Position numbers and translations under genes: made by a program | Notes under the pieces: generated by a model | What the model was told of the DNA's origin: nothing | Seen by the model: the letters and a program-made list of their open reading frames with translations, nothing else | Databases searched by the model: none | Source: Marsupella aquatica | Lineage: Eukaryota > Plantae > Marchantiophyta | Direction: 5' to 3' | Length of the DNA stretch: 64,000 nt | Assembly (NCBI GenBank): GCA_973895155.1 | Contig: OZ316896.1 | Coordinates: forward strand, 5,469,303 to 5,533,302 | In this document: positions 2,119 to 36,429 of the stretch, in pieces | Numbering within the stretch: the first letter of the stretch is position 1 | How the letters are laid out: the number at the start of each line of letters is the position of its first letter

Positions 2119-3563
2119 CACTAGTAGAAACCGGGGCAATTTAGACCAAACCTTATAGGACTAAGGCCACTAAGTCCTTTTTTACAACTTCAAATGACTC
2201 GGAACCATTGCACCGGTTCACATGAACACTACAAAAGACTCTGAGTGCTTTTTGGTTTAGGATAAGACTATGAAAAGTTTCCACGTACCCTACTTTGCGA
2301 AAGGGTGAACACTCTCGCACATGAGTGTTGTAGGGTTTAGTTGTGGGCTTCAATTTGATAATGGGCATATGGGGGGTTTACGTTTGCTATATTGAACACG
2401 TACAAACTCACTACATGTCTAAATGCCCTAATGTCTCATATACTCCATAGTGGGTTTAGGGGGGGTTTACGTCTCAAGGGTGGGCCGGTTATATGTGAAG
2501 GGTGTGGGTGGTCACCACTAAAGGGGGTTTAGTGGGGTTTATATGTCAAGGGTGGGCCGGTTAGGTCTCAAGGGGGTGGGGGTCACCAACATCCCGTTCT
2601 ATTCAAGTTTGCCAAGCCAAGAACCGGGTGCACGCATACCCAAGATTTTTGGGCTAGCATGATTTTCAATTCACAGTCGGCTCTACTTCACCAACATCCC
2701 GCTTTATTGAACTTTTCCAAGCCAAGAAAAATCAGTAACATACCCAAGATGGCCATGCAGTAACACTTTGTAGTGGTGTCTCACTTTGGGTGACACTCAA
2801 CGGCTCACTCAAACGGTAAGGCTAAGTGGCTCCCCTTAATGACTTAAGTCCCCTAATCTGGTAAAGAGGCACTAAACTGGTCTTTGGGAGTGACTTTGGA
2901 GTGTTCGGGCCATCGTCATTGGACGCAAAACGTGAGGGGTCCAAGGTTTGGGGTTTTACGTTGGATTTAGGTTTTGGCTGTAGCCCGGCTAAGAAGGTTG
3001 TGGCTGCTGCAACCTTCGATCAAAGCTAGTTGTGAGGGCTTCATTCTTTGGGGATTTTTGAGAGAAGGGCCTCTCATTGTTGCACGTTTCTCCTGACCCG
3101 CTGCACTGCCGATGTGTTGTGGCTGCACCCAGAGCAACTTGGTGTTGCCATTTGTTTCAAGAAGGTCGTGCTACCATCACGAGCTGCTGAGGAGAGGGCC
3201 AGTTGCTTGCAAAAGGATTTGTAGATTGTGTCGGAGGTCTAGATTTCTCCATTTCTACCAAGAAACGATGTGCAACAAGGCAATGTGGAGCGCAACGGCA
3301 ATGTCCAGGGTAGTCCTGAGTGCTTAGGTCATTCCATTCCTTATGAGAAATGTTGTGCGGCAGGGCAATGTGCAACGCAATGGCAACATTGTTGAGGGCA
3401 CTCCTGAGTGCTTAGGTTTTTAGTGAGTTGCAGTTTGGGAGGAGCTGTGATCTGGGGACTGAGGTGCTGAGGGTTTAGCTGAGGGGAGGAGCTGTGATTT
3501 GGGAAAGTGTTGCGGTGCCGAGGTCTATCGTAAGGTGAGGTGATTGCTGTGGAAGTTTAACTA

Positions 3564-3790
3564 TAGTGGGTCCTTAAGGTCGCGGAGGCATTCAAAGGAG
3601 GCGTGAGCAGGGCGGCAATCATTTGCTGCTGCAGAAGGTGGACATTGGAGTTGTGAAGGCGATGTGGAAGGCAACCATTGCGGAAGGTGGACTGCAGTGG
3701 GTCCTTAAGCTTGCGGAGGCATTGAAAGGAGGCTGAGCAGGGAGGCAATCGTTGCTGCTGCGGAAGGTGGACATTGGAGTTGTGAAGGAG
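3564..3790. repeat. ~130-bp tandem duplication inside the CACTA
   Basis: AGTGGGTCCTTAAG..GCGGAGGCATT.AAAGGAGGC and GAAGGTGGACATTGGAGTTGTGAAGG each occur twice ~130 bp apart. Confidence 0.8.
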
Positions 3791-6500
3791 GTCATGGAGC
3801 TTAAAGAGCAGTTGCAGAATTGGGAGCCGGTTGTTTGTTAGGAGGAAGCAGTTGATAGTGCTGCCATTGGTTATCAGTGTCATCAGCCAAAGGTTAGTCC
3901 CGGCCATGCAGCTGAAAGTGCGCTTCTTTCATCCCTTTTCCAGCAACTTTAGTTCCACATTGTTTTGTTGGGTTGTTTGTTGAATACTTTCATTGCCTCT
4001 ACAGGCTGAAGGTTACTATAGGCCTTGGCTTGCGCACCCACTCCTTACACTCATGCACAAAAACCAAACAACAAGTAGCAGAGCTCAAGCAGATCCGCTC
4101 CGCTCTGTTCTCAGCTGGCTGCGTAGTAGCCACATCTCCTCTGGTCCATCCTATTTGAGCAATGTCATACCTCCGTAGCATACAGCTTGCCCGATTGAAT
4201 GGTAGATTAGGTTCAGCACATTCTCCCTATGGCTGAAGAGTTATGGAAAACCCCAACACAATGAAATTCATTAAGATTTGTCTTGGCAGTCGAAGCTGCT
4301 GAAATTGCCAATTTTGATTGGATTCGGTAGGAATTCAGAATTTGTTGAGTTTGTTTGTTGTTGGATATGAGTTATTCAAGACTCCATGATTTGAGAGAAG
4401 CCATTCAGCATCCCCTGTAGATCCTGGTACCATTTGACATTGTGAGGGCTTGAAAGCCTCAAGAGACCGGGCCATCGCTGTATGCAGATTTTTGTTGTTG
4501 TATTCATGTACAGGATATTATTGTTCTATCTAGGCTGTGCCAAGCCAACAAACTGTTGACAACCAACATGGAATAACAACTATCCAGTGCAATGTCAGAG
4601 GACACTGTATGTCAAATACAGGAATGACATGGTTCTGTTTTCAATTCCCTGCTTGGATGAGGCATGGTGTTGCTTGTAATCATGTATTTCTTCACACTAG
4701 AAAAGCAGTCTGTCATATGAGGTTGTCGGGATTGTCTTCCGGTCAGTCATCTTACGGACACCTAGCAACGTCAAATGAAGGGCTCAAGCGGGCCATGTTG
4801 TCATTTTGAAATTTGTCTTTCCTTTTGCCATGCTACCCAATCATTCTGTTAGTCCATGAGTCATGGTTTCCCGTTGCCAAGAGACGCGTTTAGCTCTGTC
4901 TCTCAATCCCTCTCCCTCTTTCCCCTCTGACTGCCCAAGTTTTGCACCAATTCTTCAGTGTATTAGGGAAGAACAATCAAGTGTCTATCTTTTCTGCTTT
5001 TGGCCATGCTCCTTCACTTCTTGCTGCAAGCTCAATGTGCTTCAGCTATGGCAATATTCACTTACCCTGTCCCAACGCCACTGCCGTGAGCTGCGGGACA
5101 GCCAACAGAAGCTGTGTACAGATTGCATGTAAGTCAGGGTATTTTATGGATTGCGGAACAACTGTCCAAGTATGCTGCAATGGTCGGTCTTGCACAGCTC
5201 AATGAGTCAATTTCATTTTCCCTGTGCACTTCTATTTCTCAGAGAATTCCCTGGTCATGCTTATTTCCCCCAAAGTTAGAAAACAAAGAAGAAGAGCTGA
5301 CTAATTGTAATTCCAATCCATATCCTGATCGGTCAAGGATTGTGAACTACATTGGCCTTGTCATCGGCCGAGGTCACCAAATTTTGCTTGGTTTCATTCC
5401 TGTGGAGCACTGCTGTGATGGATGAATAGTGTTGTCTTGCCTTGAAGTGGGACATTGGATGAATCCCTCATGCCTTGTCTGTTTTCAAAAGCTATGGGCG
5501 GTTGACATCTTTTAGCATTCTTTGTGGTGGTGCCTTTGTTGCAGAGCTCCTGCTCCAACTGCCCCTTTTTCCAGGTAAGTTGTGCAACCTTGATTCCAGT
5601 ATAGATTGAAGTATTCTTGTCTTAATTGTGTCTATGTACATAGTGTCCTTCATTGCAACTGTCGCTTTGACCTGCTGAGTTTCAGCAAAGTGAATAAGGC
5701 ATTCTACCATAAGGCATTCTGCCATCATTCCAATCGACTTAAACAAAAATTGAGCTTCAATATGAACTGAGAGCATTTATCCCCTCCCTAGACTGATCAA
5801 AGTTTCCTAGCGAAAGTTTATATGTTTTAACTGTCCAATTGTAGGTTTAACCGTGAAAGTTCAGGCCGCTACACCAAGTGCTGGTTGGTGGCCTAAGTGC
5901 AGGGTGGTAGGCGGAGTACGTTGCCCAGCCCTTTTACTTTTGCATTGTTTGCCTATGGTGTTGGCATTTTTCTCACACTCATTCTCATCCTGCTATAATT
6001 GGCAATTCAACTATCCTCTAGAATTCAGTCAGAAGATGAAGTATTAGTAAGACTACATTTTCCCTTTGCTCACAATTGAATTTCATAATCCTACTTGTCG
6101 TAGCATTCTGCAAACGATCACGGTTTGCTTATGGCCATTATTTGCAATTTTCTGCTACTAAGATGTCTTCTTTTGAGCAGCATACACCGGAAGTAAGCAA
6201 TAGTGGAGGTTTAACTGCACATCAACACATCCAGTGAACTACCTCTCTGTTACGAACTGCAGGGTGAGACTTTCACTCTTTCTGGATATTGTAGTTTGTA
6301 AGCAAGTTGATTAGGACTGTTTCATGCTATGTTTATACTGTGACCTCTAACTGGAACCAGGGGAATGACACAGTGAGTGGGAACTGATAATTTAAGGTTG
6401 GTTGCTGTTGGTGAGGCAAGTACAACTCCTGCTCACCTTGCTGATCGAAGGTGCTTATCAGAGGACGTGAAAAGAGGACATCTCCACAAAAGCAGCACTT

Positions 6501-6950
6501 ATGGTGAGGACCCGCAACGCTAAATATGTGCGGCTTGCACGCAAGGCAGAGATGTTGCACCTTGAGTATGTCAGACTTGGGATCCTTCCAGCCCAGTCTG
6601 CATGGTACTTTGAGTACCCTGTTGTTTCCAGGAACAACTACAGCTGGCCTCTACCTGCTTCAGTACCCTTCCCGACATCCTTGGTATTTGTGTCTCTTGT
6701 ACATGACCCACCACAAATTAGGTGCCAAGGGTGTGTGCACAGTTGCCAATATGACTGTCCTGCCTGTAGGGCTTCTGGCCCAGAGTTGGATGACCGTTCT
6801 CTTGGATGTTGGTTTTTGCATAGAGCACAATGTATCATCTGGAACCATTTGCCATCCTGCAGTGTGTCTGGCGATGTCACTTGTCCTGCCCTCCCAGACC
6901 CCAACACCGGTGCCTTTGGTGTCTACACATGTTTGGATCACACGCTCTAG
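6501..6950 (+). CDS. 149-aa protein with a C-terminal PHD-like (C4HC2H) zinc finger; CACTA cargo
   Basis: Uninterrupted ATG ORF; CPAC..GC..(AQ)C..WNHLPSC...YTCLDH spacing resembles atypical PHD fingers; an extra CQGC precedes it; basic N-terminus. Confidence 0.5.
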   Translation: MVRTRNAKYVRLARKAEMLHLEYVRLGILPAQSAWYFEYPVVSRNNYSWPLPASVPFPTSLVFVSLVHDPPQIRCQGCVHSCQYDCPACRASGPELDDRSLGCWFLHRAQCIIWNHLPSCSVSGDVTCPALPDPNTGAFGVYTCLDHTL

Positions 6951-7618
6951 AGGACCACTTGTCTCACCGCATGCACAGACCAGAGACCATTGACCTATAA
7001 CTTAACACTCTGACTTGAACAGAGAGGATATTTACTTAAAATTTTGAATTATGAGCAATTTTGGGTCCAGGGTTTAGGGTCAACAGTACATAACTTATCC
7101 TATTATGGCTGCACTAAGTACAATATCCTAATTTAAGAGGCTAGCAAGCTCACTTAAAAGTCTCCTTTCAAAGACTGGAATTAATGGGCCATGTGATAAC
7201 CTGGAAAAAGTGATTTATGCCTAACTTATTTGTCTCATTCACTATCATAGCCTATTTAGGATGTATAAATTACAACCCTGATCACACTGCTTGATACCAA
7301 TCCTATTTGAAAAATGCCTGTTTTACATGTCACGACTATTGTATGTGATTCAAATGCATTAAATCTTTGTTGCAGATCTCCTTTGGTGAATCATAGCCAC
7401 AAAATTGAGGTGTAGGTGGAGCTATTGTACTAGGGGATCAGTTTTCAGAGTGGGCTCAACAAACCAAAAAGTATGTATACTCTGCATCTATGTGTGATCA
7501 TTTCATTGCAGTAGCAATTGCCACTCTAGTCTATATGCTATATTGTACTTTTTGTACACTGCTAAATTGTATTGTCTGTGCACTCTGCTAAATTGTACTA
7601 TCTGTCTCATGGGTAGGC

Positions 7619-8299
7619 ATGGCACGCCCTAAAATCCGAGCCAAGAAGTGGGGGACAGAGGTGAGCAACATAGGTGTAGTTGGGCCTGATGGTAGTAACT
7701 TCTCCGCACGTCAGATTTTCCAGAAGGCAGCTCATTGTTGTGCCATTTGTGACGATGGTGGGGGCTTAGCCATATATGAGGGCCCTTGCATGAGGCATTT
7801 CCACCTCAACCCGGAGTCTGACCTTGCTGCAGAAAACAACTGTCCAGGGGTGGGCCTCCCGTCAGCACACCAGGGAGGCTAGATGTGCATTGATTGTTTG
7901 GAGATGCAGGCTAAGTGTGCACAATGTGGGAAGTTGGGGTCTTATGAGGGCTCTGTTGATGCTCCACCACTTGTTAGGAAATGCCCTGACAAATATTGTG
8001 TGAGGTTCTTTTGTTTTTCATGTTTGCCCGATCTTGCCACAGCTTGCCCACTTCATAAGTGCAAGGCATGTGGTCAGCACGATGAAGATTTCTGGGTGGA
8101 CATAGTCCATTGTGTTAGGTGTCCCACCATGTGGCACTTTCATTGTTTGAAGGATCGTCAAGCAGAAGGCTATGCTTGTGACAGACACATCTATCATCAC
8201 TCTGCACATGGTGTTGATCGATGGATCTTCTATTGTCATCGCCATGCCATAGATCCTACTTTGCACACTCCTATGAGAGATCACATTTCTTGGCTTTGA
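7619..8299 (+). pseudogene. EDM2-like composite PHD-finger module (one in-frame TAG at 7880-7882); CACTA cargo
   Basis: CAICDDGG..EGPCMRHFH..C..CGKLGS..CPLHKC..C..CVRCP..WH..CL..IFYCHRHAIDPTLHTPMRDHI parallels the recalled Arabidopsis EDM2 PHD region (CAICDNGG..EGSCLRSFH..CKNLGS..CPLHKC..CRRCPKSYH..LIYCQEHEIDEELLTPVRDHV). ORFs 7619-7882 and 7883-8299 are in the same frame. Confidence 0.85.
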
Positions 8300-8929
8300 A
8301 CCTGAATAATGTACTTGCATAGTGCACCTGATGTGGATACCTTGGAGATTGCAGACATTCCAATTTTGAGAAGGACCTCTGTAGGAGAGGATGCTTAGGC
8401 AACAAGTACCCTAAGTTCATTACTTGTTCCTGGGTACATGCCTTCAAAAACTCCCCTTAAGCCTTCTAGGAACTTTTTTAACTCTGCAATCATTTTGATC
8501 ACGACTTACATGACACTTCTTAAATTAAATCAGGACTTCTGATTATGTGCATATAAGTTACAAGGCTATTTAAATTGCGAGAATTCCCTTAAAGTGTACC
8601 AACATTTTGTATTCTCATTGAATGTCTGCCCATTTACAACATCTGTACATGTGGCATCACAAAACAATTGCACTTGTCACCTTCAATATTGTGAAGGCAC
8701 ATATTCAAACTATGAGGTGCATCCTTGCAGGTGTCTAGTATGTTTGTCCCAATATTTCTCCCGTTTGGAATCGGAGCAGAGACTCACCAGACGACTAGAC
8801 TAGACCAAGTTATAAATGCAACATTTTAGGGGCCCTCCGATTATCAGGTGAACGCATTATCTTCCGGTCTGTTGTGATTAGGTGGGGTGTGTGTACATGG
8901 CCTCTAGGAAACGTACAAAGGTTGACCAC

Positions 8930-9743
8930 CCGCATCTGTTGGCTGGAATCAAAGCCATTTTGATTCCTGGCCACTATGGGTTCACCCAAGTGAGTTGGCC
9001 AATCGTACAAAAATGATTATCAGAGTTCCATGGGACTGAAGTCAAGGACATCACTCCACAGACTACACATGTTGTTGCGGGGACATGGCTGGATGTGATG
9101 AATAAGTGGTCATGGTCCTTCATTGATTCTGCCATTACCAACCAAGGTCTAAAAGTAGTTGAAGTCTCTTGGCTGACCGATTCTATTAAACATAGGTGTG
9201 TACAGAGTACTGAGCAATATGAGTTGTGGGAGAGTGAGGAGGCCACTGTAGAGGCTTTGGCTAAAAAGGAAGCCTATGAAGCAGCGGTAGAGAAACCCAA
9301 CTTTGCTTGTCCAATATGGACCTGTTATCAACATAGGACACCATCCTATGACTGCAGATGCTATATTGAATGAGCATGGCAAGGAGAGAAATACCATTAT
9401 GAAGGGGTTCAGTGTGGTATTTGCAGAAGAGGGAATTGGGGAGACTAAGTGAAGACTGTACAAGTCCATAGTTGTTGAGCTAGGTGAGACAGTGGAAGAG
9501 AGTCTAACAGAAACCTCCACTCATGTTGTAGGTCTGTCATACATGAAAATATGCAGAAAATTCTTTAAGACAATAGTGCGTGATTTTGTCATGAACAACA
9601 ATCTTTGGGTGCTTTCCCCTGATTGGCTTCTGGAATCAGCAGCAACAGGGAAGCGACAAAATGCTTGGGACTTTGATATTTTTGAGGCCTGGCCCTCCAA
9701 GCTTCAGCGAAGATGTATATTTACCAATGGTGGGAGAGAGTGA
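8930..9743 (+). pseudogene. Two tandem BRCT domains (DNA polymerase lambda-like); CACTA cargo, disrupted
   Basis: Domain 1: LLAGIKAILI..QK*LSEFHG..ITPQTTHVV..KVVEVSWLTDSI. Domain 2: MKGFSVVF..GIGETK*RLYKSIVVELG..STHVV..VLSPDWLLESA..DFDIF. Both have the THVV and W-x-x-D/E-S BRCT signatures; TGA stops at 9014 and 9450, and a frame change between the domains. Confidence 0.75.
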
Positions 9744-9883
9744 GGAGTAGGAGTCCCTCATATTTTTGTATAAATCACAATTTTGTAATAAATGTGATCC
9801 TTGAACTAACTCATCTTGTCATGGTTGGTCGCAGTTGAAGTGATTGTTGTTTCCTGCTGCGTGGGGTGTGACTGTGAATCTAC

Positions 9884-10429
9884 TTGCTGGGCTCTGTTTG
9901 GCTGAAGACTTTGGTGGGTATGCTGCCTCTTCCAGACCGACAGGCCCTATGTAGGGTCCTCCTACGGGTTGCATCGTGCATGGCTGCTGCTTGGGCTTAC
10001 TTGTGTGGATTGGTAACCAGACAGAGTGTAGCTCCATCCGAGATAATGCCTGTAGACCTTAGATGTGTTGTGAATGCTGTGGTGAATGAGGATGCACAGT
10101 CCGAAGAGGACATTTACTTTTCAACAGATGAGTTAGACAAGCATGATGCTGTAGGTGGTTCCTTGTTGCCTGATTTGGTAGATGATATAGTTCTTGTGGT
10201 GTCTGGCGCACAAGATATCTGCAAATATAGACTAATTAGTACCCAGTGGAGGGACTTGGTAGCAACATGTGCACCGTGGAGGGCACTGCTACCACTGCTT
10301 GTAGGCACGGATCGAAGACCACCATGGCATGAGCAGGGTTTAGACCTTGATGACTTAATGTACATGCCTAGGTACCTTAGGGCTGAGTGGCATCAACAAC
10401 AGGATTGGTATCCGTATTTGATGTGGTAG
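9884..10429 (+). CDS. F-box-like protein or exon; CACTA cargo
   Basis: SLLPDLVDDIVLVVSGAQDICKYRLISTQWRDLV resembles the F-box consensus LP..I..L..D+.+.R.VS+.W+.+; ORF has a non-ATG start, so may be an internal exon. Confidence 0.45.
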   Translation: MLGSVWLKTLVGMLPLPDRQALCRVLLRVASCMAAAWAYLCGLVTRQSVAPSEIMPVDLRCVVNAVVNEDAQSEEDIYFSTDELDKHDAVGGSLLPDLVDDIVLVVSGAQDICKYRLISTQWRDLVATCAPWRALLPLLVGTDRRPPWHEQGLDLDDLMYMPRYLRAEWHQQQDWYPYLMW

Positions 10430-10760
10430 TAAGATGAGGACATCTCACACCGGTCTCGCACCTGGCACCTGTGTCTATGACTATACATGATTGGACTCTG
10501 ATATGGTCATGGATGTACGTGCAAAGGCAGTACATGTGAGGACAGCGGAGGAGTTGACACCCTCAAACATTTAGGAATTTTGTCTCATTCACTTGAGAAT
10601 AGGTACATGACTCAGGCACCTATATTTTTTGTTTTTTTGTTTTTTTGGAACGTTATGCTACGTATTTTGGCAAGTACAGTCGGGGGTGAAATCCTTAACA
10701 GGGAGTGTATTTTTCACTTGCATAATAAAATGACAGGGTGCTGAGTGCGTGTGTATAGTG

Positions 10761-13700
10761 ATGGCTCCAAGGTTGCCTCTTCACAACCCATTTAGGATTA
10801 GGCATCATGATTCTAAATTGTGGATGCATGAACAAGCCCGGGCCGCCCAAGGTAGGAGTAGGAGGATGAGATGCCCATGCACACAGTGCCAAGGATTCAA
10901 GTCGTTGAGTTTGAACACTATGCACCTTCACCTGCTGCGGCATGAAAGGCACCCTCGGCGAGACCCTCGGTGGAGGGTTTGGAATGTACCAGCAAAAGAA
11001 GACTCCTCTGATGAAGAGTGGAGAGATGACTTTGTGGATTCTAATACAGCTAGGCGTAGAGACTACGTAGAGCAGGACATAGACTGTGCAGAGGATGGTC
11101 CTGGGGTACAACATGAGAACGTGGATGACCAAGATGGAGATGCAGAGGCAGTCACTGAGGATGGTGGGATGGATGTCCCAAGAATGGTTCAAGAGATTTT
11201 TGAAGACCTTGATGCTTTCTATGACACAGTGTAATTAGAAGAGGACAATGAACCGCAGCCACACATTGGAGACGGCCAAGCTAAACCTGACTTTGACATT
11301 GGGGAAGGTGTAGCAGAGAGGGAGTGGGTGTTTGGGGGCCCAAAACACATCAAAGAAGCTTGCATTCCTATCTACGAGGGGTCGAACTGCTCCAAGCTGG
11401 GTTTTGTCGTGTTGTTGTTGAACATCTGTGGCAATCACAATGTTCCCAATATATTTGTGACAGAGTTGTTGACCTTCTGGCGCCAAAATGTGTTACCAGA
11501 TGGTAATTCAATTCCAAAAAATATGTATGAGGCTAGGAAATTGATGTCTAACCTTGGGCTGAACTATGTGTCTATTGACGCATGCCCTGATGGGTGTGTT
11601 CTCTTTCGCAAAGAGCATGCAGATAAATTGACATGCCCTCATTGTGGTAAGCATAGGTACAAGAATGTAGGGAAATGTACACACCCTGCCAAGGTTCTTC
11701 GTCATTTTCCTCTCATTCCTAGACTACAACGTCTGTTTAGATGCCCTGCCATTTCCAAGCTGATGACATGGACTCCTGATAACAAGAGCAGTGATGGCCT
11801 GCAGCGTCACATTGGAGATTCCAACCATTGGAAATTTGTTGATGAGAGGTGGCCACAGTTTGCTGCAGAGAAGCGGAACTTTCGATTTGGTCTATCACTG
11901 GATGGAGTAAACCCATTTGGAGACAAAAACAACCGTTATTCATGTTGGCCGGTTACGCTGCTAAATTACAACCTTCCCCCATGGATGACTACAAAGAGGT
12001 TTTTTGTCATGATGGTGCTGCTAATCCCTGGACCAGCTTCTATGACCGAGCAATTCATAGATATCATGTTGGCTCCAGCAGTGGAAGAGTGGAAGACTTT
12101 GTGGATAGAAGGGGTGTTAACCCATGATGTTCTGAAGGGGCTTCTTTGACCCAGCCCCTTTAGATTGCATGCAATTTGTTTGCTGGATATAGCAGATTAC
12201 CCAGGCCATGGCATCATATCTGGACGAGTGACAAAGGGCTATGTGGGGTGCACACCATGTGGGAAAAATGTGACAAGTGAGTGGTCGCATGCCTTGCACA
12301 GTATGAAATTTCAGGGGCATAGAAGGTATCTGCCTGCTGATCATCCTTACAGGCACACACGGTCTCAAATTGCACACTTCAACAACAAAATAGAGCTTTG
12401 TGGCCCACCATAGAGGGTCACCAGAGAGCAAGTCCTGAGGTGCGCAGCCAGGAAGGCTGATTGGGACAAGAGAAGTGTCACTGATCGAGAACCTGAGGAT
12501 CCAGTGGTGAAACACGGTGTGAAAAGACAGACCTTGATGGACTTGGACTTGGAGTACTGGAGGGTAATGTACTTAGCCTCCAGCCCCTGTATGATTGCAG
12601 ATTGGAGCAATGGTGGATTGATGTTGGTTACAATCCTCCTATTTGGTTAATTAGTGTTTCTGTTGTTGAATTCTTTGCTTTGTGGAGTGCAGGAATTCGA
12701 GCCCAGCAAACACAATGTGGACGTCATGCACATTGAGAAAAATATTTGTGAGAGCTTGCTGAAGTTCTTGTCGGGTGAGAAAGATACAGGAGCAGTTCGA
12801 GCTGATATGCAACAGAAGGGGATTTGCCCTCACCTTTGGTTGAAGCCCCATGCAAGCAATCCCAATGTACTTCTCAAGTTCCAAGCTCCCTATGTGTGCA
12901 CACAGGAAGAATGGAAGACATTCTTGTATAGATTGAGCTGTCTGAAAGTGCCCTCTGGCTATGCTGGTGCCTTCAAGAAGCATATTACAAAGAATAAACT
13001 TGGCAGTATGAAAACACATGACTTTGATGCAGCACATTCTGCCCCTATGCCTCAGAGGTCTCATGCAGAAACCAGTCCGTAATGTCATTCTTTGACTGTG
13101 CAATGTATTTTGCCGTATATGTGTGAAAGTGTGGGATCCCCAAGGATTGGAGCAGTTGAAGCAAGATGCTGCTTATGTCCTCTATGACTTGGAGATATAC
13201 TTCCCCCTTGCTTTCTTTGATGTTATGACTCATCTCCTAATCCATGTGGTAGAATTGCTAGGGCAGTATGGGCCAGTCAGTACCAGATGGATGTACCCTA
13301 TGGAGCGATACATGGGTATAGCGACGGAGACAGGAAACAGGTAAACAGGATTTTTTTTTCCTGTTTTTAAAATGCTGTTACCAGGAAAAAATCACTGTTA
13401 CCAGGAAAAATGACAATTTAAAAATGTCTCCTAAAACATGTTATTTCCAAAAAAAATTAACAATGCAACATTTTTGGCTAGCTTTGGGCGCTACTATTAG
13501 CAGCGCCGGGCGCTAGCAAAAAAAATTGGTCGACCGAAAAAAAAACTTTTTTTTTCTCAAAAAAAAAAATTCAAAAAAAAAATTCAAAAAAAAAATTCAA
13601 AAAAAATTCAAAAAAAAATTCCACCCATTTTCCTGTTACCAGTTTTTTTTCCTGTTACCAGTTTTTGTTATTAAATCTTGTTTCCTGTTTGCTGTCTTTT

Positions 13701-14863
13701 GTAAACACCTCCGATACATGAAGTTGTTGAAAGGTCATGTGAGAACATACTACAGGCCTGAGGCTTCCATGGCATTGGGGTACATTAAGGATGAGACGTT
13801 GGGGTTCCTAACAGAGTACATGGCTGGGTCTGGTGAAGCTATGACAAGAGTTTGGAAATCTGGTGAAGATGATGGAGTGAGTGGCGAGGTTGTTGAAGGT
13901 GTGGGACATGCTGTTCAACTGCCTGTTGCGATTCGAGACAAGGCTCATTCATATGTGTTGGCAAACACAGAGCCTATGCAACCATGGTGGAGGTGAGTGA
14001 TTGAATTGACTTGCCTTTGTTGTGATGCTTCTTGTCTGTTCCAAGGGTGATCTTAGGTTGTCATGTGTTGTTTAGACCTAACTATGCTTGTACCTCATAT
14101 TGCAGGGAATATGATATGCAAAAAGCTACACACTCTGGGTAGCAGGATCCCTTCCCACAGTTCGAGCAGTGGATTCGGGTGACAATTTGAGAGCATAGTA
14201 GACATCACCCAGATATGGAGAAGGATGTATCTTCTATCTGTGCCACCACGATTGTCTATTTTGACCTACAAACGGATGAGAGCTTATGGAAATCATTATC
14301 GAGTGAGGGATGAGCAGGGTGACCATTGTGTATCATATGATTGTGGTTTGATTTCTGTGTTTGAGCAGAGAACCTCTGAAGAACAGAGGGGGTGGATGAA
14401 GATGGGTTACGTGGGGGAGTTGATAGACATTTGGGTGTTGAATTATGGTAACACAAGTGTCCCAGTGATATTGATGAAGGGATCATGGGTGAAATCAGAG
14501 TGGCAGAGACCAAGGGCCACCATGAAGCGTGATCATGATGGGTTCTTGTTGGCCAATTTTAGGTCCAGAGTACCAGAATGGTCTGAGCCTTTTGTTTTCC
14601 CTAGCCAAGTTGAACAGGCTTTCTTTGCAGATGTGGAGGAGTCACATGGCTGGAGGGTGGTATGCCATAGCCAAGCACGGAACAGGCGGATGGATGGAAG
14701 TAAAGTAGAGTTCAGTTTGGATGACCATGCTGCATTCGAGCATCCTAGTCACGAGACTGTACTTCCAACTCGGGCAGGGACTGACTACATCCCCTTAACA
14801 TTGAGAGAGACATATGATGAACCTGAGGAGATGGAATATGATGAGGTTGATGATGTGCAATAG
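10761..14863 (+). pseudogene. CACTA TnpD-type transposase (Transpos_assoc, Transposase_21, DUF4218, DUF4216) with stops, a frameshift and a MITE insertion
   Basis: CPCTQC..HLLRH; IDACPDGCVLF..CPHCG; LRHFPLIPRLQRL; GLSLDGVNPF..SCWPV..YNLPPW; DYPG; DVMHIEKNI; FFDVMTHLLIH..RWMYPMERYM; EPFVFPSQVEQAFF. GT-AG introns predicted at 12564-12692 and 13993-14105. Confidence 0.95.
13314..13711. mobile_element. MULE-like MITE inserted in the transposase DUF4218 region
   Basis: 8-bp TSD CGATACAT (13306-13313, 13712-13719; a 9-bp reading is also possible); ends GGGTATA...CACCTC; imperfect ~40-bp TIRs with AAACAGG repeats. Removal restores PMERYM-KLLKGHV. Confidence 0.88.
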
Positions 14864-17800
14864 GCAACAACTGGCGATTGGCAAGTATGAGGTTGAGGAT
14901 GACTACCTGCATAGAGTCATAGAACGGGAATTGCTGCCTGGAATGATGTTTAGGATAGTTGGATATGCATGAAATTGATTGATACTTTGAATTTAGTGTG
15001 CTGATTCTCCCTGTTTGGTTGTGGGTGCTGTGCAGAAGCTATGGGGGAAGAGGGTGATGACATGGAGACAGACATGGGGCTTGGAGAGTGGGGTGAAGAG
15101 GAAAGATTGGATATGGATGGAGACCCAGATGCAGGGGGCTCACAGAAAAATGCACCTGTGCAGGATTTAGGGCCCTCATCAAGTGCCAGGTAGGTGGGCA
15201 GCTAGAGAGAAATCACATAATCCATACCCTAGAAGGAGCCAGAGTTATTAACAAGGGACGCCTGATAATTATGATGATGACTATGATGGAGCAGAAGATG
15301 GATGGGATGAATATGAACACCCAAAGCGTGGTAGAGACGGGTACAGAGGGCAATGGAAAGGTGAGGAGGATGATTGGACAAGTAAGTGTCTTGTGCTAGT
15401 GATTTTGTGATGGTAGTAGAGATTTAGCTCAATATGGACTTATCTGATGTGTAGCTAGGGCAAAGAGTTTATCTTATAGGTCCATGAGTGTGGCATGTAC
15501 CTGTTGGTATGCAGACTCTGATTGGGACAATCATGAAAACAACAAAGGCCATCCACGTTCAGATAGGAGGCAATCATTCACAGGCGGGAGAAACGGCCCT
15601 AATTCATCAAGACAAAGCAATAGGACAAGTGGTCCAGAACCATCTATGCGCCAAGGGAGAGGTAACTTGGTCATTGCAGAATTGCTCTGAAGTCCAGTGT
15701 ATATTTGGCAGCAGGATTTATGATTCATACTTACCTAATGGATCCTGTAAATGTGCAGGGACTCTAGGGAGGTTTGGACAATGCAATCTAGGCCATGGGG
15801 GGAGATCAGGCCGTGGAGGGACCCCAGGCCATGGGGGGACACCAGGCCGTAGCACTTTAGGGAGTACCAAGGCAGGAGACAGTAACAAATTTGGTAAAGT
15901 AGAAGTGAATTCCGATGGTTGGATAACTCCCACATGTGATGGTAAGAACCGTTGGCATTCTGACCTAACAGGAGAAGTATTGCGTTGGTTAGATTTGAGC
16001 ATTACAGAGTTTAGGAGTCAGAACAAAGCTGAGTGGGCTGCTATCTGCAAGGACATTCTTGAACGGTGGGACTATGTTGGTAATGATGGTAATTAAGGGC
16101 CCAGTTGAAGATTGCATATCAGATTATGCAATGAGGATTTTGAAACAAGAGAGGCATAGGTTGAAAAGAATGTGGATAGACAATGGTTCTAACAGGAGAA
16201 TGCCACCACCCCCATCATTGGAATTGGATCAATGGACACGGTTAATCAAAGGGTTCATGTTGGAGGCTGGGCAGAGCAAGAGTGAACTGATGATGTCAAA
16301 TGCTCGAGGCAAAGTGAAACACCTGTCACAGGCTGGGAGAGGAAGTTATGCTCCAGTGAAAGAACAATTGGTAAGGCAGTGACATGCCTGATAGTAAGCC
16401 TCAAACTTATCATCTTGCTACCATTATTACATTTTCATTGACAATCAACACTTGGTTTCATTCATATGTATGTTGATGTGGACTGCAGAAGAAATTGACA
16501 GGTGAAGAACCATCAGCACAAGAAGTGAGAGAGGAGTTCATGAAACAAAGGAGTGAGGTGACAAGTGTGACTTCCAAATAGGTGATTATGTTGTAATTTT
16601 GTATGTTTTGTGACTATTTGGCCTTGAGCATCAGAAAGAATTGTAGTAGGAAGTAAGCAACCAGTTCTTGGGGACAATTATCTGAGATATGTAAGCTGTG
16701 TTATGATAGGGAACTGTTACAACTCTCATAGAGATGTGTGAACGGTTGAAGTCATTAGAGTGTGGACTCCCTCGAGTGGAAAGTAAATTGGCTGATCGTT
16801 TGGATATTGTGGAGGCATCTGTAGCGAACCTTCTTGCATTAGTGGAATCTAATTTCAAGCTTGTGATTGAAAAATTGGGTGGTTCCCAACCAAACAATGA
16901 GGGCAACATTGTACAAAGTGTGCCCTTGTTAACAAAAAAGGGAATTGGCAAATCTAACACAGGTATGGAAATGACACCGGCCCATTGTTCATTGTGTCCT
17001 ATGTTCAAATGTTAGAAGTAAGTTTTCATGAATTGAGTGAATGGTTTGAATGCAGGAAGAGTGGAGGCAGAGAAGGACCCTGTAATCAGTAAGCAGAATG
17101 GCAAGAAGGTTGTTGAGACAGGTAACCTGCTATGATCCAGTACATTACATTTGAAAAGTGCATGGAGTTTTGTGAAGCTTAAGCCGGTTGGAGGTAATCT
17201 TTTCTGTAAGAACTGGTTGGATCAACTGGGATCTGAAGTGACATCATGATTGATGTATCAGGTGATTCAAAGAGCAATGAAAAGGATGTGCCCAGTGCCT
17301 CAGTGACCATAGCCAAGGAGGTATCAGGTAAGCTGATGCTTTAAATTCCTCTCCTAGCATTGTTGAGAAACAATTCAATGGTGAATAGATTGAACCTGAA
17401 TATTGTGGTGTGTTTATTGATCAACAGAAGCAGACATGGAGGATATGGCAATGGCAAAGAAGGGGAAGAAGACTGTTCATAATGGTAAGGAGATAGTGAC
17501 AACTTTGTGGTTGGTGACATGTACATGGCGCACATGTGATGAGTGATTCACTTATGTTGGACAATGCACTGAATTGTAGTTGATGTAGAGTTGACAGACT
17601 CTCAACCAAGTGGGAGCAGGGTGAAGCGACGTCAAAACTTGGGAGCAACATTAGATGCAAGTAAGATTGTAGATGCTTCAATTGAAGCAAGTACAATGTT
17701 GGCAGATATTGAGATGATGTTGCAGGGAAATCCTGCTACACAATCGGAAGTGTCAAATATGGATGCAAATTCTTTGAAGAAGAGTGTAGCCAATTCTCGA

Positions 17801-18124
17801 TCACCAGCACAAAACACTCGTGCCAAAGTCATGACTCGCAACCAAGGTATGAATAATGTCAAGTATAAGCCACCCGGGAAAGCCAAGAAAAACAGCCAGG
17901 GTAAGGTGGAGGTGATAGCCACAGCAGAGCAAGTCCATAATCTTCTATCATGGGAGGATGACTCGCAGGTATGTGTGGGTACAGGCATTTTGCGACCAGA
18001 TCATGCTAAATTCCATGGCAAAGTGGTCCTGGATGACCATGTAGTAGTGTTGTTGACTACAGTGATTGTATCTGATTGTAATTTGTCATTTCCGAATAGA
18101 GACGATGATCCACCTCAGAAAATA

Positions 18125-19687
18125 CACTAGTACATATTAAGCTGATTTCCGATGCTCAATTTTTGCGAACAATCGGCGTCCGATTCTTTTAGCATCGAAA
18201 ATTCCGATTATCAACAAATGGCAATATGCCATACTCTCGGCTTTGGATACCTTCATTTCCGATATAATTGACAACGGAACCTTTCCGATGCGTTAAAAAA
18301 CGGATCATATCCGTTAGAAAACACATCGGATCCCTCAACAGAAACTTTGATTGATATGTCCGATGTTTTTTGTAACGAAAATGATGTGCGTTACAATATT
18401 GATCGGAAACTTTCCGTAGTTAATAATAACGGATATTATATCCGATTGTGCTAACATGGCAAAGTCCGATGTTGGGAGAATGGGAAAGTCCGATGCTGGG
18501 AGTATGGGAAAGTCCGATGCTAGAAGAATGGGAAAGTCCGATGCTGGGAGTATGGGAAAGTCTGGTTATGACAAAAAGAAAATTTTTGATTGTGTTAGAA
18601 TGAAAAGTTTTGATGTGTTAGATGGGGTATGTGGTTGCACCGACATACTCTTCCCAAAAGATGCAATCATTCTTGCATGCATGAATAACTTCATACTTGA
18701 GGCAAATGGACTTGAGTGTTGTTTTTGCCTCATTCCAAGACCCAACATATTGTTCCCTTACGGAAATATGTGCTCAACATGCCAAGTCCAAAATACATCA
18801 TCTAGAAGGAGGTTGCTTGTCCCATGTAGTCTTTGTTGCAAGTCCAACAACAACATAGTTGATAAAAGATGAGACAATCAGGAGCCATTGACGCTGAGGC
18901 TTTGGAAGGACCAAAATATCATCCATAACTAATAAGCCATAATTATCCCATATCAAATCTAATGAAGGAGGGCTTTACTATCGATGAATGACCCCTGCCA
19001 GATTTCTATTGGTTTCTCCTAGGGGAATGTAATAGGGTAACTAGAATAGGTCACGTGATGCAAAGATCTAATCTCATGATAGAGAAAAATGGATCAAGAA
19101 TGGGTCCAAATTATGGGTCTTAGTAAACTCACAAGTGTATAAAATCCCCAAACACTCTAAGTCAAACAACAAAAGTGCTAAGCTTGCATGTACAATGTAA
19201 GGAATAAGAACCACAAAGTTAAGCTCATGTTGGAGGAATAGCAATTGGGATGGGTGACCAATTAGTTGAGAAAATTTGAAGAGTTCACATGTCAAGGGAG
19301 ATGGGCACCTAGCTCATAGTTCCAAATGAAAGTAGAAACCCAATTAAAGGAAGAGATGGGTGACCTGAGCATGTCGCGTCCGCTGACATGCATATCCCAT
19401 TTTGATTGCTTCGGACTTTCCCATTCTCCTAGCATCGGACTTTCCCATTCTCTCACCATCGGACTTTCCCATTCTCCTAGCATCGGACTTTCCCATTCTC
19501 CCACCATCGGACTTTCCCATTCTCCCACCATCGGACTTTCCGATAGAAGTCCGATTGTCGATATCCGATACTATTAAAATGGCATGTTGCGATGCTAGTA
19601 GTATCGGATATATGGTTTTTCAAATTTTATTTTACAAAGGCGTCCGATGTGGAGAGAATCGGAAAAAGGAGGTAAAATGTACTAGTG
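18125..19687. mobile_element. Nested non-autonomous CACTA, 1563 bp
   Basis: TIR CACTAGTACAT / ATGTACTAGTG; TSD ATA (18122-18124, 19688-19690); many TCCGAT/ATCGGA subterminal motifs; 24-bp tandem arrays in opposite orientation at ~18455-18565 and ~19410-19545. Confidence 0.95.
19204..19259 (+). promoter_or_regulatory. 5S rRNA-derived internal control region (box A/IE/box C-like), Cassandra-like
   Basis: ATAAGAACCACAAAGTTAAGCTCATGTTGGAGGAATAGCAATTGGGATGGGTGACC aligns with plant 5S ATCAGAACTCCGCAGTTAAGCGTGCTTGGGCGAGAGTAGTACTAGGATGGGTGACC. Confidence 0.6.
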
Positions 19688-20653
19688 ATAATTGCATATG
19701 CAGTAGGATCTCTTGTGCTCTGGCCATCAGAGTGTGTTAGTCTGCAGTGACTAAATGCAAGTGTAGATAGAATCATGTGAATTGTGTTACATTTTGACAT
19801 TGCCTTGGAAAGATCCAAGAAATATTTGTACCAATTTTATTTGGTAAAGAGGATGAAGGAGCCGTTGTGTGTGACATTGATATTTCTGAATTCTGTATGT
19901 ATGAAACAAGTGATTGATGTCAAACTATGGCTCTATGGTGATTGTCTATGATACTTGAATCTGTTTTGTATCATTTCAGTATTAGTGTGTATGGTATAAA
20001 CAAATGCTTTGTGACCTTCTTTATAGTCTATGATGTTTAAATCTGTGAATTCATATTAGTGTACATGGTATAGAAGATGGCTTTCTGAAAATTTATGTGA
20101 GGTTCTAATGTTAACATGGTGAATGGTGAGCTTATAGAGTGAGTTCATTCCAAGTACACAATAAAACATGAATGAAATATGTTATTTGTGCACAAGAGTG
20201 AGTTCATTCCAAGTAGTATAGTGGGGTCTTAATTCATCACTCATTTCCAGTTGACATGAAAGACTTATACATACCCCACAAAGTGTCTACTTTAGTCGTT
20301 TTATAAACCCTCACAAAGTGTCTACTTTAGTCGTTTTATAAACCCACAAAGTATACTTAAAGACTACCCTCCATAACCTTTTGAGTCGTTCCCAATGACT
20401 CACCATCGCAGCCCATAAAAGACTGAAAAAGACTCACCAAACCTACCCACACAAAGACTACAATAGACTGAAGATCTAGTCTATAAAACGACTTATAAAC
20501 CAGTCCTATAAAGGACTCAAGTTGATTATAGTAACAAAACATACGACTCATAGTCCTATAAAGGACTGGAGTCCTTCCCAGTCATTTCCAAGTCCTATAC
20601 GGTATTGAATAGTAGTTTAATGGGGTCTAAATACCCCCCGGTTTCTACTAGTG

Positions 20654-21795
20654 GATGGACCTGGACATACAAGAGGCAGAGGCAGCGGTGGCATTAGAAT
20701 TACAAGGTCAGCAACCCTCGCGGCCTGAACATTCCTATAGAGCAAGGGAGAGAGTGGCACCTGAGAACTCTGACCCGAGTGTGCAATTCCCTGCTGCTGG
20801 TAGTGTCCAGCAGAGATCGGGTGGGAGCCATTGGCTACCGGAGGAGACACGACCACAATAGAGAGGCAGGCAGCAATCCGATTGGAATGACTCAAGATTT
20901 GATCATACTAACAAAGCGGATTATGACGGGGTCTCGGAGGAACCCTTGAATACATGTTTGGAAATGCTGAGGAAAATTGCAATCAGCTCCACTAGTGACT
21001 GGCCTAACACGTTACACACCAAAATCCAATGGTCCATTGAGGAGGCTACTCTCTCTATTACCGAACTATACAACTGCACCATGATGTGTTATTTCACGGA
21101 TCGCCCCCTCTCTTACCGGCCTTTCATGATTGGGCCGAATTTGTGTTCATTCAAGACCTGGGCTGGCCGATAACTTAGATCAAATTTTCCGGTAAGAATT
21201 TCTATGTGATCACATTTGAATTCCCAGAGCACCGTGATTCGGCCCTGGAGCTGGCGCCCTTTTTTATGGATAGGAAATTTGTGTTTACCTTCCCGTGGGA
21301 GCCCTCCTTTGATGCAAGCAGTGACTCCTACACCAAGCTGCCGGTCTAGATTGAGCTACCATTCAGAGCGCTAGTACTCGAGGGCTGCAGGAAAAGGATT
21401 GCAGAGTCATTTGGGAAAGTTCTATATTACATTCAGGGCGATGAGCGCAACTCATTCCCTCATGATAGGGCTTGCATTTTGTGGGACACTGGACAGGAGG
21501 TTCCGCGGTGTGTCGGAGTGGATATTACGGAGGGCATCACAATCTGGCAGCCGGTCATATCTAGGAATATATCGTATCATTGTTTTAAATGCAACCAGAA
21601 GGGTCACTTGGCAAGGGATTGTAAAGCCCTTGAGCAGGAGGAGAACACTTCTAAAGGCAAAGAAATAAACGGGGATAACAGGTCAAGGGAGACGGAGGGT
21701 GACAACAATAAAGAAGCCAGGATGGTGGCGGAAACCTCGGCTGGCGGCAATCAGAGGCACTCTACGAACCCAAACCTGCACCGTCAAGACAACGG
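20654..21795 (+). pseudogene. LINE copy A, rest of ORF1 (DUF4283-like + CCHC zinc knuckle), 3'-truncated
   Basis: NTCLEMLRKIAISSTSDWPNTLHT..; CFKCNQKGHLARDC; close match to ORF1 at 36430-38163 and 58350-59825; abuts a gypsy protease fragment. Confidence 0.9.
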
Positions 21796-26164: not shown

Positions 26165-27754
26165 ACATTGAGAAGGCAGTGATGAAGGTAAGTCATTGAC
26201 ATAGAAGAAGAGACTTGGATCAAGAGGCTATCAGTGGAGTTCCAAGTCAAACCAAGACATCAATCACTACAAAGATGGATAATACTACTAGTGGGGGTGA
26301 GAAGAAGGAGATCAAGCCCACAGCACAAGAAGGCAAAGGAGGAGCAGTTGAAGAGCTTGCTGATTTGATGATCGAGGAACTTGACCATTCTTACAACCCA
26401 AGTTCTAAACCAGACACAAGCAACCAAGACTACAACAACAACAAATCGCACATGGAATTGCATGTGGTGTGACAGTAAGGGGCATAGAAGAAATGATTGC
26501 ACTAAACTTTCTGCAGCACTTCAAAATCGACTTCTGAAGTTTGTTGGTGAGCAAGTGCAAAAGAAGCTTGCATACTACAACAATGAGGAGCTTATATCAC
26601 TCAACAATAATCGTGGAGGGATGAGAGCCTTAGTGGAGAAAAAGTTGGCAACAGAAGGAGTAGACACAGTAGCAACTCTAATCAAGCCGAATGTTTTTGC
26701 TGCAACAAGTTGTTTTTCAGAAAATGTACTTGATGAGACAGGAAAGAAGAAGCTTGCTGACTACATTCGTCAACAAACTGGATGGGATGTTCCTGTGTTA
26801 ATAGCCCCAATTACTGCAGAAGTTGGAGCTACATGGGAAGCAAGAGTGGAGGACAAGCGCAAAACTCCTTCAAGTGATGAGCCAAGAGGAAAGATGCCAA
26901 GAAGAGAAACTTCAGATTCACCAATGGAGGAAGTGAAGAAGAATGAGAAGTCAACCAAAAAGGGACCTGGATGGATACTAGGCCATGATATGGAACAAAC
27001 AATTGAACCAGAGAGAATTGCTGATAAGTTTTGGAAGCAAGAAGCCCGTGGTTTTACAAATGAAGAGTTCTTTGGAAGTTTAAGGAAAGACATACAAGAA
27101 GCAATTCTTACAAGATCAAAGAAGAAATGTTTTTACAAAGAGGGTCCTCATGCTCTAGCTGGGGAGATGGAGGATTCAGACAATGAAGGAGAAACTAAGA
27201 GCGTGAACATTTGTGCAGTACAAGTTGAAAGACAACAAAGTTGAGATTCCTATCATGCTAAATCTATAAAAGAAATGAAATCATATTGGGTAAGAGCTTG
27301 TGATGAAGTTGAGGTGGAGCTGATTGGAGTCAAAGGTCCTATCAAGGCACTTATTGATTCAGGATCAGAGGTGAATCTAATGTCAAGGGAGCTCTACAAC
27401 CAAGGAAGGTGGAAGGTGGATCGAGACATCCAATGGAAGGTGAAATCAGTCAATGCAAATCACAATTCTTTGTGGGGAGCTTGTCCTGATGTGAAGCTTA
27501 AGGTAGGAAATGTGCTTGAAGACATCAATGTCTTTGTTCATGATTCCTTACCTTATCCACTTCTTCTAGGACAACCTTTCATTACAGAATGGAGACTAGA
27601 GACTAAGGTTCTTGATGATGGCACTCATATGGCCAAAGTCAAGAGTAAGGATAATCTTCGTGTTATCCAATTTCCAACAGTTCGCCCAGATCATGTGAGA
27701 AATAGGAAGGAGCTAAGAGCAAGTGAAGAGGTGAAGGACCAAGAAAATTTCTGA
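26165..27754 (+). pseudogene. Gypsy element 2 gag (5'-truncated) plus protease
   Basis: CMWCDSKGHRRNDC knuckle; ALIDSGSEVNLM protease with LLLGQPF; stops and frameshifts present. Confidence 0.9.
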
Positions 27755-35600: not shown

Positions 35601-36382
35601 TTGAAGTAAGTCGCTTTCTTGTTGTTATTGCTGCTACCAGTAGAGGCAAGTCTAAACTGTAGTAGGATCGGATCATGGTCTGATAGCGCAGAGCCCCCTT
35701 CGTGAATCAACTTTTCCACCTCTCCAGCCCACCAGCTGCAGCCACTAAAATAAAATCGATCTAGTCGAGATTGGACCAATTTTCCGTTGATGCTCCTTCT
35801 CCAAGTAAAGCTAGAACCCTGACAAACAGATGCCAAGGAAAATGCATCCTCCAGGTCAAATCGAGTTTTGAAGAATCGCCAATATTCTGCTTCACGTCCA
35901 TGTATAAGGGGAGAGGGGCCAGACGAGTCGCACCGGCCCTCCGTCATATTGAAGTCCCCGCAAACTATCCAGTTTTCTTGTGGTAAAGAAGACTTGAGTT
36001 CATGCCAGAGTAGGGCCCGCTCCCTGGGGATGTTAGGCGCGTATATACTCACAATGCCAATGCGGACATCCGGATGTTCCACCCGGGCCCAAACCGCGTG
36101 CCCTTTATCCACACTCCCATGGTCAATCATTTGAAGCGAAGGGTGTAATAGCAAAGCCGAGCCCCCCCTACCCTCGTCAGGAGCCGATGCCAAGTGTGTA
36201 TAGGACGGGAGAATTGTTTTTAGAGCCAAATCTAGTCTAAACTTATCAGCCTTGACTTCTTGTAAGCCAAGAGCTACTAAAGGTGTGCGCAGCGATGCTA
36301 TCCAGTTCTTGACAACATGCTTTCTATTAGTCTTGCATAGGCCACACACGTTCCATGATGCAATAGTCAGCGGCGAACCCAT
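32627..36382 (-). pseudogene. LINE ORF2: APE endonuclease, reverse transcriptase, zf-RVT; a few stops/frameshifts
   Basis: SWNVCGL, LQE, GDFN, SRLDRFY, SDHDPI; KAPGPDG, WRPLTMLN, LDFEKAFD, GVRQGCPLSP, FADD, YLG; CQIC..ESIPHLFFKC. Confidence 0.96.
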
Positions 36383-36429
36383 CCTGCCCGAGTCTCAACT
36401 TCCCAATTTGTCAAAAGCTCCTCATTTCC

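Follow-up and report, generated by a model that had tools for sequence, protein, structure and literature searches.

The host protein EDM2 reads heterochromatin at transposons that lie within genes. The locus described here raises the question of whether a transposon family has a reader of this type of its own. A sequence-only reading of the DNA had proposed that a stand-alone, intronless frame covering the PHD region of EDM2 is carried by a transposon and could play an active role there. We asked what the frame is, what carries it, what its relatives look like, and whether such a protein would serve the element or the host. All coordinates are positions on the forward strand of the window, the 64,000-nt stretch of DNA that was analysed.

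The PHD frame lies within a decayed CACTA element

The transposon that had been postulated around the frame is confirmed by terminal inverted repeats (TIRs) that match at 18 of 18 nt, a GAT/GAT target duplication (TSD) and a paralogous empty site. Its parts are as follows.

2119–20653, forward strand: whole CACTA (En/Spm-type) DNA transposon, 18,535 bp, with TIRs, TSD, a paralogous empty site and internal transposase domains
2119–2136, forward strand: 5′ TIR, CACTAGTAGAAACCGGGG, 18 of 18 nt and 100% complementary to the 3′ TIR; TSD GAT at 2116–2118
20636–20653, reverse strand: 3′ TIR, perfect 18-nt partner of CACTAGTAGAAACCGGGG; TSD GAT at 20654–20656
10761–14863, forward strand: CACTA transposase gene with Transpos_assoc, Transposase_21, DUF4218 and DUF4216, from Pfam; in-frame stops
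18441–18562 and 19395–19545 (span 18441–19545), strand not given: two inverted arrays of 24-nt subterminal repeats near the 3′ end, from a repeat search

The TIR sequence has two matches in the window against 0.02 expected from shuffles, and the 3-bp duplication borders both ends of the element. The left flank aligns to 59697–59536 (−) and the right flank to 59538–59482 (−), together one continuous paralogous repeat. Because the two flanks meet on the uninterrupted repeat 59482–59697, where they overlap by 3 bases, this repeat provides an empty-site control for both the boundaries and the duplication. The insertion target is itself a repeat (flanks 1745–2118 and 20654–20858) found elsewhere in the window; its uninterrupted paralogue at 59482–59697 (−) has a single GAT, and a related ORF also occurs at 38151–38630 (−).

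Transposase_21 (PF02992) scores 124.8 and 58.1 bits within the element and PF13960 is matched too, with PF13952 and PF13963 below the cut-off. CACTA-type termini, the 3-bp TSD, Transposase_21 (tnp2) and the subterminal repeats jointly assign the element to the CACTA / En-Spm group. Four in-frame stops interrupt its transposase frame (10761–13079), at 11232, 12147, 12411 and 12648; of these, the one at 12147 falls within Transposase_21, and some of the others may sit in introns. The element is a decayed, formerly autonomous CACTA copy.

Two further stretches of the element lie outside its recognisable genes. The ~5.5 kb between the 5′ TIR and the PHD ORF (2119–7600) contain no Pfam-recognisable ORF and carry short direct repeats at 2452–2588 and 3548–3788; this stretch could represent promoter or subterminal sequence, or else an insertion nested in the element. 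Downstream of the transposase, 15488–18127 (+) holds several open frames of 100–200 codons with no Pfam match. The TnpA-like gene of CACTA elements is usually positioned downstream of the transposase.

The window copy of the PHD gene is a pseudogene

Counted from the 5′ end of the element, the PHD ORF begins 5.5 kb in; the transposase, encoded by the same strand, follows 2.5 kb further downstream.

7619–8299, forward strand: stand-alone EDM2/NSD-type triple-PHD ORF of 226 codons, a pseudogene; ATG at 7619, TGA at 8297–8299
about 7739–7897, forward strand: PHD1, within the PHD ORF
7775–7777, forward strand: TAT (Tyr53) for the family TGT (Cys), a PHD1 zinc ligand, from contigs and alignment
7880–7882, forward strand: in-frame TAG at codon 88, replacing the invariant PHD1 Trp (W-x-C-x-x-C)
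about 7916–8056, forward strand: PHD2, within the PHD ORF
about 8060–8245, forward strand: variant PHD3, then the C-terminal TPMRDHISWL and the stop

The ORF begins 40 residues before PHD1 and terminates four residues past the RDH motif. It had been described as a frame of about 226 codons over the EDM2 PHD region; the start, the stop and the TPMRDHISWL end hold, whereas the frame is not open, since the TAG divides it into 87 and 138 codons. In an end-to-end alignment, window residue 88 (the stop, read as X) aligns with Trp in all five stand-alone homologues described below.

To place these changes in the family, contigs of four public runs from three organisms (X1, X2, X3 and X5) were aligned to window positions 7300–10700. 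Position 7881 is G (TGG) in 33 of 33 covering contigs (7, 21, 4 and 1 in the four runs). At position 7776, where the window has A, every contig of X1, X3 and X5 has G, as does 96% of the X2 depth; the Cys at the residue-53 column is nearly invariant among homologues. Because the other copies read TGG and Cys, the two disabling changes are private to the window copy. Going from the window to the other copies, X1 has 19 A>G and 24 T>C differences against 10 G>A and 4 C>T, with the same bias in X2, X3 and X5. The window mostly has A/T where other copies have G/C, a pattern that would fit cytosine deamination in a silenced repeat.

Three NSD-like PHD families are recognised in order in the window copy, all under their gathering scores: PHD-1st_NSD at residues 38–64 (E 9.6e-5, 22.9 bits, gathering 27), PHD_NSD at residues 97–140 (E 0.0035, 18 bits, gathering 23.9) and PHDvar_NSD at residues 148–180 (E 6.4e-5, 23.3 bits, gathering 27). 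With Tyr for Cys at 53 and a stop at 88, this copy does not have the eight zinc ligands per finger and the open frame that a functional PHD protein needs. Together with the broken transposase, these two lesions mean that the window copy can do nothing itself, and the active role once suggested for it falls away. The locus as such is an ordinary dead copy.

Stand-alone relatives retain the same start, end and zinc ligands

A word-index protein search returned five of 135 candidates at E<=1e-3, all of them 217–245 aa long. The best, P0001 (226 aa), is 80% identical to the window PHD ORF with an E-value of 3.7e-123, so the likeness is far beyond chance; identities of the others are 73% (P0002), 53% (P0003), 38% (P0004) and 37% (P0005). 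In all five, the module closes with DHISW and then L, I or F; the stop comes immediately after in four, and P0003 extends 9 residues. At the other end, P0001, P0004 and P0005 start with MAR(P/C)K and P0002 with MARK, and P0003 has MARP 20 residues into its called ORF. Alignment of the window ORF with the five homologues leaves 51 invariant columns. The Cys/His zinc ligands, whose loss would have counted against the sequence-only reading, hardly vary among 30 sequences of the stand-alone and EDM2 types. As start, stop and ligands are kept down to ~40% identity, we infer that the PHD gene has been under coding selection for much of its history.

More stand-alone forms (P0006, P0007, P0010, P0011, P0074 and others) came from an exhaustive phmmer scan, and among the 150 matches listed the stand-alone type is confined to proteins of at most 245 aa. 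Many other family members are truncated or frameshifted, among them P0008, P0084, P0088 and P0093, with frameshifts in the first three. A metagenome scan with the family alignment gave 66 stretches that fit the pattern, one of which was confirmed. This contig, L001 (1495 bp), is a stand-alone copy that starts with MARPK, ends in DHIAWLGQ-stop and contains one frameshift; its 1495 bp include no neighbouring gene. The physical link between PHD ORF and CACTA element is seen in the window element only, L001 being the sole relative contig examined for context. Neither the five nor a set of ten looked-up stand-alone forms (0/5 and 0/10) come with a source gene name or an annotated genome; all derive from Logan, JGI/IMG or ENA contigs of 1–13 kb.

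In each of the four runs, between 121 and 2740 contigs cover the PHD ORF together with its non-coding flanks, at identities from 99+ to below 90%. The 2740 contigs of X2 split into 909, 980, 635 and 216 over the classes 99+, 95–99, 90–95 and under 90%. Contigs of such graded identity indicate many diverged copies, and the depths are not copy numbers. The contigs on 7300–10700 are short in all four runs, and none bridges the PHD ORF, the neighbouring BRCT ORF (see below) and the transposase.

The module is closest to plant EDM2

A phmmer search with the PHD ORF against 1.84 billion representative sequences produced 176 matches at E<=1e-3 and 68 at E<=1e-10. The longer matches, absent among the 327 candidates of the word-index search and found by the full phmmer scan, are proteins of ~800–1600 aa with the module at about residues 220–435. 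Nearest among them are plant EDM2 proteins (E 1e-13 to 1e-17), with NSD2/3 more distant. Four of the 19 looked-up longer clusters are named 'protein ENHANCED DOWNY MILDEW 2' (Cryptomeria, Mangifera, Neltuma and Selaginella), and these matches cover query residues ~22–224, which bears out the EDM2 likeness first noticed in the letters. Other long matches, from Marchantia, Riccia, Calypogeia, Diphasiastrum, Ceratopteris, Mesotaenium and several angiosperms, are hypothetical or PHD-type proteins, and one from Bertholletia is named Histone-lysine N-methyltransferase. Pfam identifies PHD_NSD and PHDvar_NSD in the 28 phmmer matches scanned, and an N-terminal DNMT1-RFD in 6 of the 28. We also considered the PHD of plant BRCA1/BARD1 as a source and rejected it: none of the 19 longer clusters is named BRCA1/BARD1, against the four named EDM2, and no BRCT occurs in the 28 matches.

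A single-sequence PDB search with the PHD ORF returned a chance match alone (E 0.19). The profile search succeeded, and the stand-alone family profile matches the NSD2 PHD1–3 array (residues 648–801) at E 2.6e-10 and NSD3 at 4e-8. All six alignment members (the window ORF and five homologues) match PF23004 and PF23011 at E<=0.1, and P0011 passes Pfam gathering for PF23004 (31.2 bits) and PF22908 (28.3 bits). The family thus resembles the PHD arrays of animal NSD1/2/3 (PF23011, PF22908, PF23004) in profile alignment to NSD2/NSD3 and in its best fold matches, which are to NSD PHD5-C5HCH, but it is without SET or PWWP domains and its window copy stays below Pfam gathering. The spacer between the PHD1 His and the next Cys measures ~10–12 residues in stand-alone and EDM2 types against two in NSD2. 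This shared long spacer ties the family to EDM2 rather than to NSD.

With plant EDM2 and EDM2-like proteins, the stand-alone type has in common an identical three-finger order, the long PHD1 spacer and the module end TP.R[DN]H. PMC7529245 credits EDM2 with 2 1/2 atypical PHD fingers, behind which come PGR, ELP and Pro-rich regions, and describes it as an H3K9me2 binder that acts at TEs within genes. Measured against that description, the stand-alone type lacks the N-terminal RFD-like region, the ELP/N6-adenine-methyltransferase-like domain, the PGR region and the Pro-rich tail, and Pfam finds PHD families only. Accordingly small, the window-type protein has 226 aa versus ~800–1400 aa for EDM2. 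There are differences within the module as well: PHD2 of the stand-alone type reads RFFCFxC (Cys) where EDM2 reads RFYHPxC (His ligand), and EDM2's ~20-residue insert between PHD2 and PHD3 is missing. The proposal of a reader-only, contiguous PHD module with its own start and stop, carried by a transposon, is upheld.

Stand-alone modules and EDM2 fall on opposite sides of a long branch

We built trees from the PHD module alone. In a chosen set of 35 rows, 10 stand-alone and 25 EDM2-type modules lie on opposite sides of a branch with UFBoot/SH-aLRT support of 100/100, present in 100% of 200 bootstrap trees (unrooted), so the stand-alone rows do not group with EDM2. The large tree comprises 71 PHD modules covering the profile, after 11 near-identical cluster members were dropped and five partial stand-alone rows added. 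Here, too, 13 stand-alone rows are split from 58 EDM2-type rows with SH-aLRT 100 on a branch of length 1.5 (unrooted). The sequence-only reading had asked about a transposon-specific clade; a distinct clade of stand-alone modules is recovered, on unrooted trees and with the CACTA link seen in the window alone.

The EDM2 side roughly tracks plant phylogeny, with liverworts, lycophytes, a fern and seed plants. Divergence inside the stand-alone clade (paths of 1.5–2.8 changes per site) is as large as that across land-plant EDM2, and the stem between the clades is long, at 1.5–1.7 changes per site. Judged from these alignments, the stand-alone clade is not a recent copy of EDM2 from any sampled lineage. 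On an unrooted tree, the stand-alone lineage would be either old or fast-evolving after a later capture. Since the intact relatives form a separate, probably old branch, the transposon family likely keeps its own histone reader.

The predicted fold is that of a multi-PHD reader

AlphaFold2 modelled P0001 from a 30-row alignment with pLDDT 85.1 and pTM 0.77, and predicted disorder in residues 1–25 only. Foldseek matched the model to the PHD5-C5HCH tandems of NSD1/2/3 (probability 1.0, TM 0.57–0.60 on the target) and to the PZP domains of JADE1 and BRPF1 (E 2e-5 to 1e-4, low TM). VIA-align ranked the NSD3 and NSD2 tandems first, with a middling Z of 5.8 and an rmsd of 2.6–2.9 over 84–85 residues. 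With PHD1 alone it returned BHC80, TRIM66, CHD4 PHD2, UHRF1 and AIRE, at middling Z of 3.5–4.0 and up to 44% identity. One of the NSD PHD5-C5HCH matches, 4gng, names an H3K9me3 peptide in its structure title, and PHD1 resembles readers solved with unmodified H3 (BHC80, AIRE and TRIM66). The predicted fold fits a multi-PHD histone-tail reader and proves no specificity.

A small tandem BRCT gene lies next to the PHD ORF

Between the PHD ORF and the transposase lies another small reading frame.

8897–9743, forward strand: tandem BRCT ORF, broken, with TGA at 9014–9016, TGA at 9450–9452 and a 2-bp gap after 9307

The frame starts at ATG 8897 with the first repeat; past 9307 the second repeat continues in the next frame up to the stop at 9741–9743. 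Its lesions can be compared with other copies in the same contigs. Position 9014 is C (CGA, Arg) in 83% of the X2 depth, in 99% of X3 and in all of X5 and X1, and position 9452 is C (TGC, Cys) in 30 contigs that account for 99.7–100% of the depth per run. Both stops are thus minority states in the family, as sampled by the contigs of the four runs. A frame-joining TC after 9307 is present in 1 of 1 contig of X3, in 2 of 2 of X5 and in two contigs of X2 (20% of depth), and in none of X1.

Once the stops are read as X, PF00533 matches one half at 22.5 and the other at 28.6 bits, above its gathering score of 21.3 bits, which identifies two BRCT repeats. The ORF shows a weak likeness to BRCA1 BRCT chains (E 0.03–0.05). 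No longer relatives of the BRCT half were found among 331 candidates of a word-index search, which is weak evidence. We considered whether PHD and BRCT parts are exons of one spliced gene, and rejected this because the stop directly behind RDHISW is retained in homologues. Counting the PHD ORF and the BRCT ORF, two small reader-type genes without introns precede the transposase in this family, both with basic N-termini (MARPKIRAKK for the PHD ORF, MASRKRTK for the BRCT ORF).

A 169-codon open frame occupies 9920–10429 (+), between the BRCT ORF and the transposase. The stop-to-stop frame 9878–10426 has a weak F-box match (PF00646, E 0.066, 13.6 bits) at residues 112–135. The frame at 9920–10429 might belong to the element as a third accessory gene, or reflect chance.

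What the intact protein might do, and for whom

We consider it probable that the window PHD ORF is a decayed copy of a stand-alone, 226-codon, CACTA-borne gene whose intact relatives are EDM2/NSD-type triple-PHD proteins, predicted to bind H3 tails and likely to serve the element over the host. An intact protein would be made and, given its basic MARPK...KK N-terminus, would enter the nucleus. There it would dock on H3 tails through PHD1, as suggested by the resemblance of PHD1 to BHC80, AIRE and TRIM66 and of PHD2-PHD3 to NSD PHD5-C5HCH. Once bound, the reader might tether either the transposition machinery or the chromatin of the element itself to a particular histone state, and such tethering would bias integration or keep the element transcribable. 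The BRCT protein would perhaps act at the double-strand breaks of excision. Tethering is the mechanism that we prefer for the intact protein, though tentatively, with its chances a little short of even. It would resemble the PHD or chromodomain modules that are fused to other transposases and integrases, such as Rehavkus (PMC6446971), RAG2 and chromoviruses.

The main alternative to tethering is a decoy: a PHD-only competitor that would occupy the H3K9me2 sites of host EDM2 and disturb ASI1-AIPP1-EDM2 RNA processing for the benefit of the element. In its favour, the protein is an EDM2-type PHD module alone, stripped of the RFD-like N-terminus (present in 6 of the 28 matches scanned) and of everything past RDH, and PMC7529245 has EDM2 binding H3K9me2 and acting at TEs within genes. 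Yet the clade is far from host EDM2, at 35–38% identity. Because PHD2 has Cys for His and the PHD2-PHD3 insert is missing, a binding specificity identical to that of EDM2 is not assured, and there is no evident gain to the element from blocking EDM2. We regard a decoy as unlikely.

There are two other readings. The frame might be a captured (transduplicated) fragment of a host EDM2-like gene, a functionless passenger as in Pack-MULE or CACTA gene capture. Capture is common in plant DNA transposons according to PMC6446971, and the window copy is indeed broken. However, the ORF is whole in relatives down to 37–40% identity, with the same start, stop and zinc ligands, and neutral decay would not have left it open at such distances. 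The stand-alone forms also make up one clade outside all sampled host EDM2, from liverworts to angiosperms, and an ORF and Pfam scan of the surroundings found no EDM2 flanking exons or intron remnants around the PHD ORF. A passenger fragment is therefore quite improbable. Alternatively, the short relatives might belong to an ordinary host family of small EDM2-like proteins, one of which the CACTA element picked up recently. The relatives do sit on contigs of 1–13 kb, and L001, the one examined, has no neighbouring gene. Against a host family stand the lack of any source gene name or annotated genome in the looked-up stand-alone forms, the many frameshifted or truncated copies, and the hundreds to thousands of contigs in four runs in which the ORF and its non-coding flanks recur at graded identity. 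We give this reading very little credence.

A broader version of that preferred reading is more speculative than tethering, and the odds are against it. An old CACTA lineage would keep a chromatin toolkit upstream of its transposase, made up of an EDM2-type H3 reader, a BRCA1-type tandem BRCT protein and perhaps an F-box protein. The toolkit would read heterochromatin and double-strand-break signals and steer integration, repair or escape from silencing, and EDM2-type readers would have been shared by plants and transposons since before land-plant EDM2 diversified.

Relation to other chromatin-directed transposons

The PHD of RAG2 and the chromodomain integrases of chromoviruses are chromatin readers in the machinery of mobile elements. 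Among transposon-borne proteins that are chromatin-directed or anti-silencing, PMC6446971 gives the PHD finger in Rehavkus transposases and VANC of Hiun/VANDAL21, and fungal DNA transposons are reported to carry TET/JBP (PMC12730594). All of these resemble the present case in that a mobile element has its own chromatin-directed protein. The CACTA-borne reader differs from them in being a separate small gene, unfused to transposase or integrase, in being of EDM2 type and in being paired with a tandem-BRCT gene. Searches of the accessible open-access literature turned up neither an EDM2-like gene carried by a transposon nor a CACTA element that combines PHD and BRCT genes. It is already known that transposons can have chromatin-directed proteins of their own, and a CACTA-borne EDM2-type reader would be a new form.

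If the family keeps a private, reader-only module, this would add a new example of mobile elements that encode a piece of the very machinery by which they are handled, all the more so if the module is paired with a BRCT phosphopeptide reader. The clade also raises a question of direction: was the module taken by hosts from transposons, or by transposons from hosts? At 226 aa, the protein would offer a small test object for the histone specificity of the EDM2-type module.

Surroundings of the element

The rest of the window (21000–64000) is a pile of retroelements, in which no ordinary host gene was seen. It includes LINE-like ORFs with endonuclease/RT-like sequence at 32627–38250 (−), gypsy-like gag/protease/RT/integrase pieces at 26372–30183 (+) and 55798–57774 (−), and large unannotated ORFs at 40547–43991 and 50323–52878.
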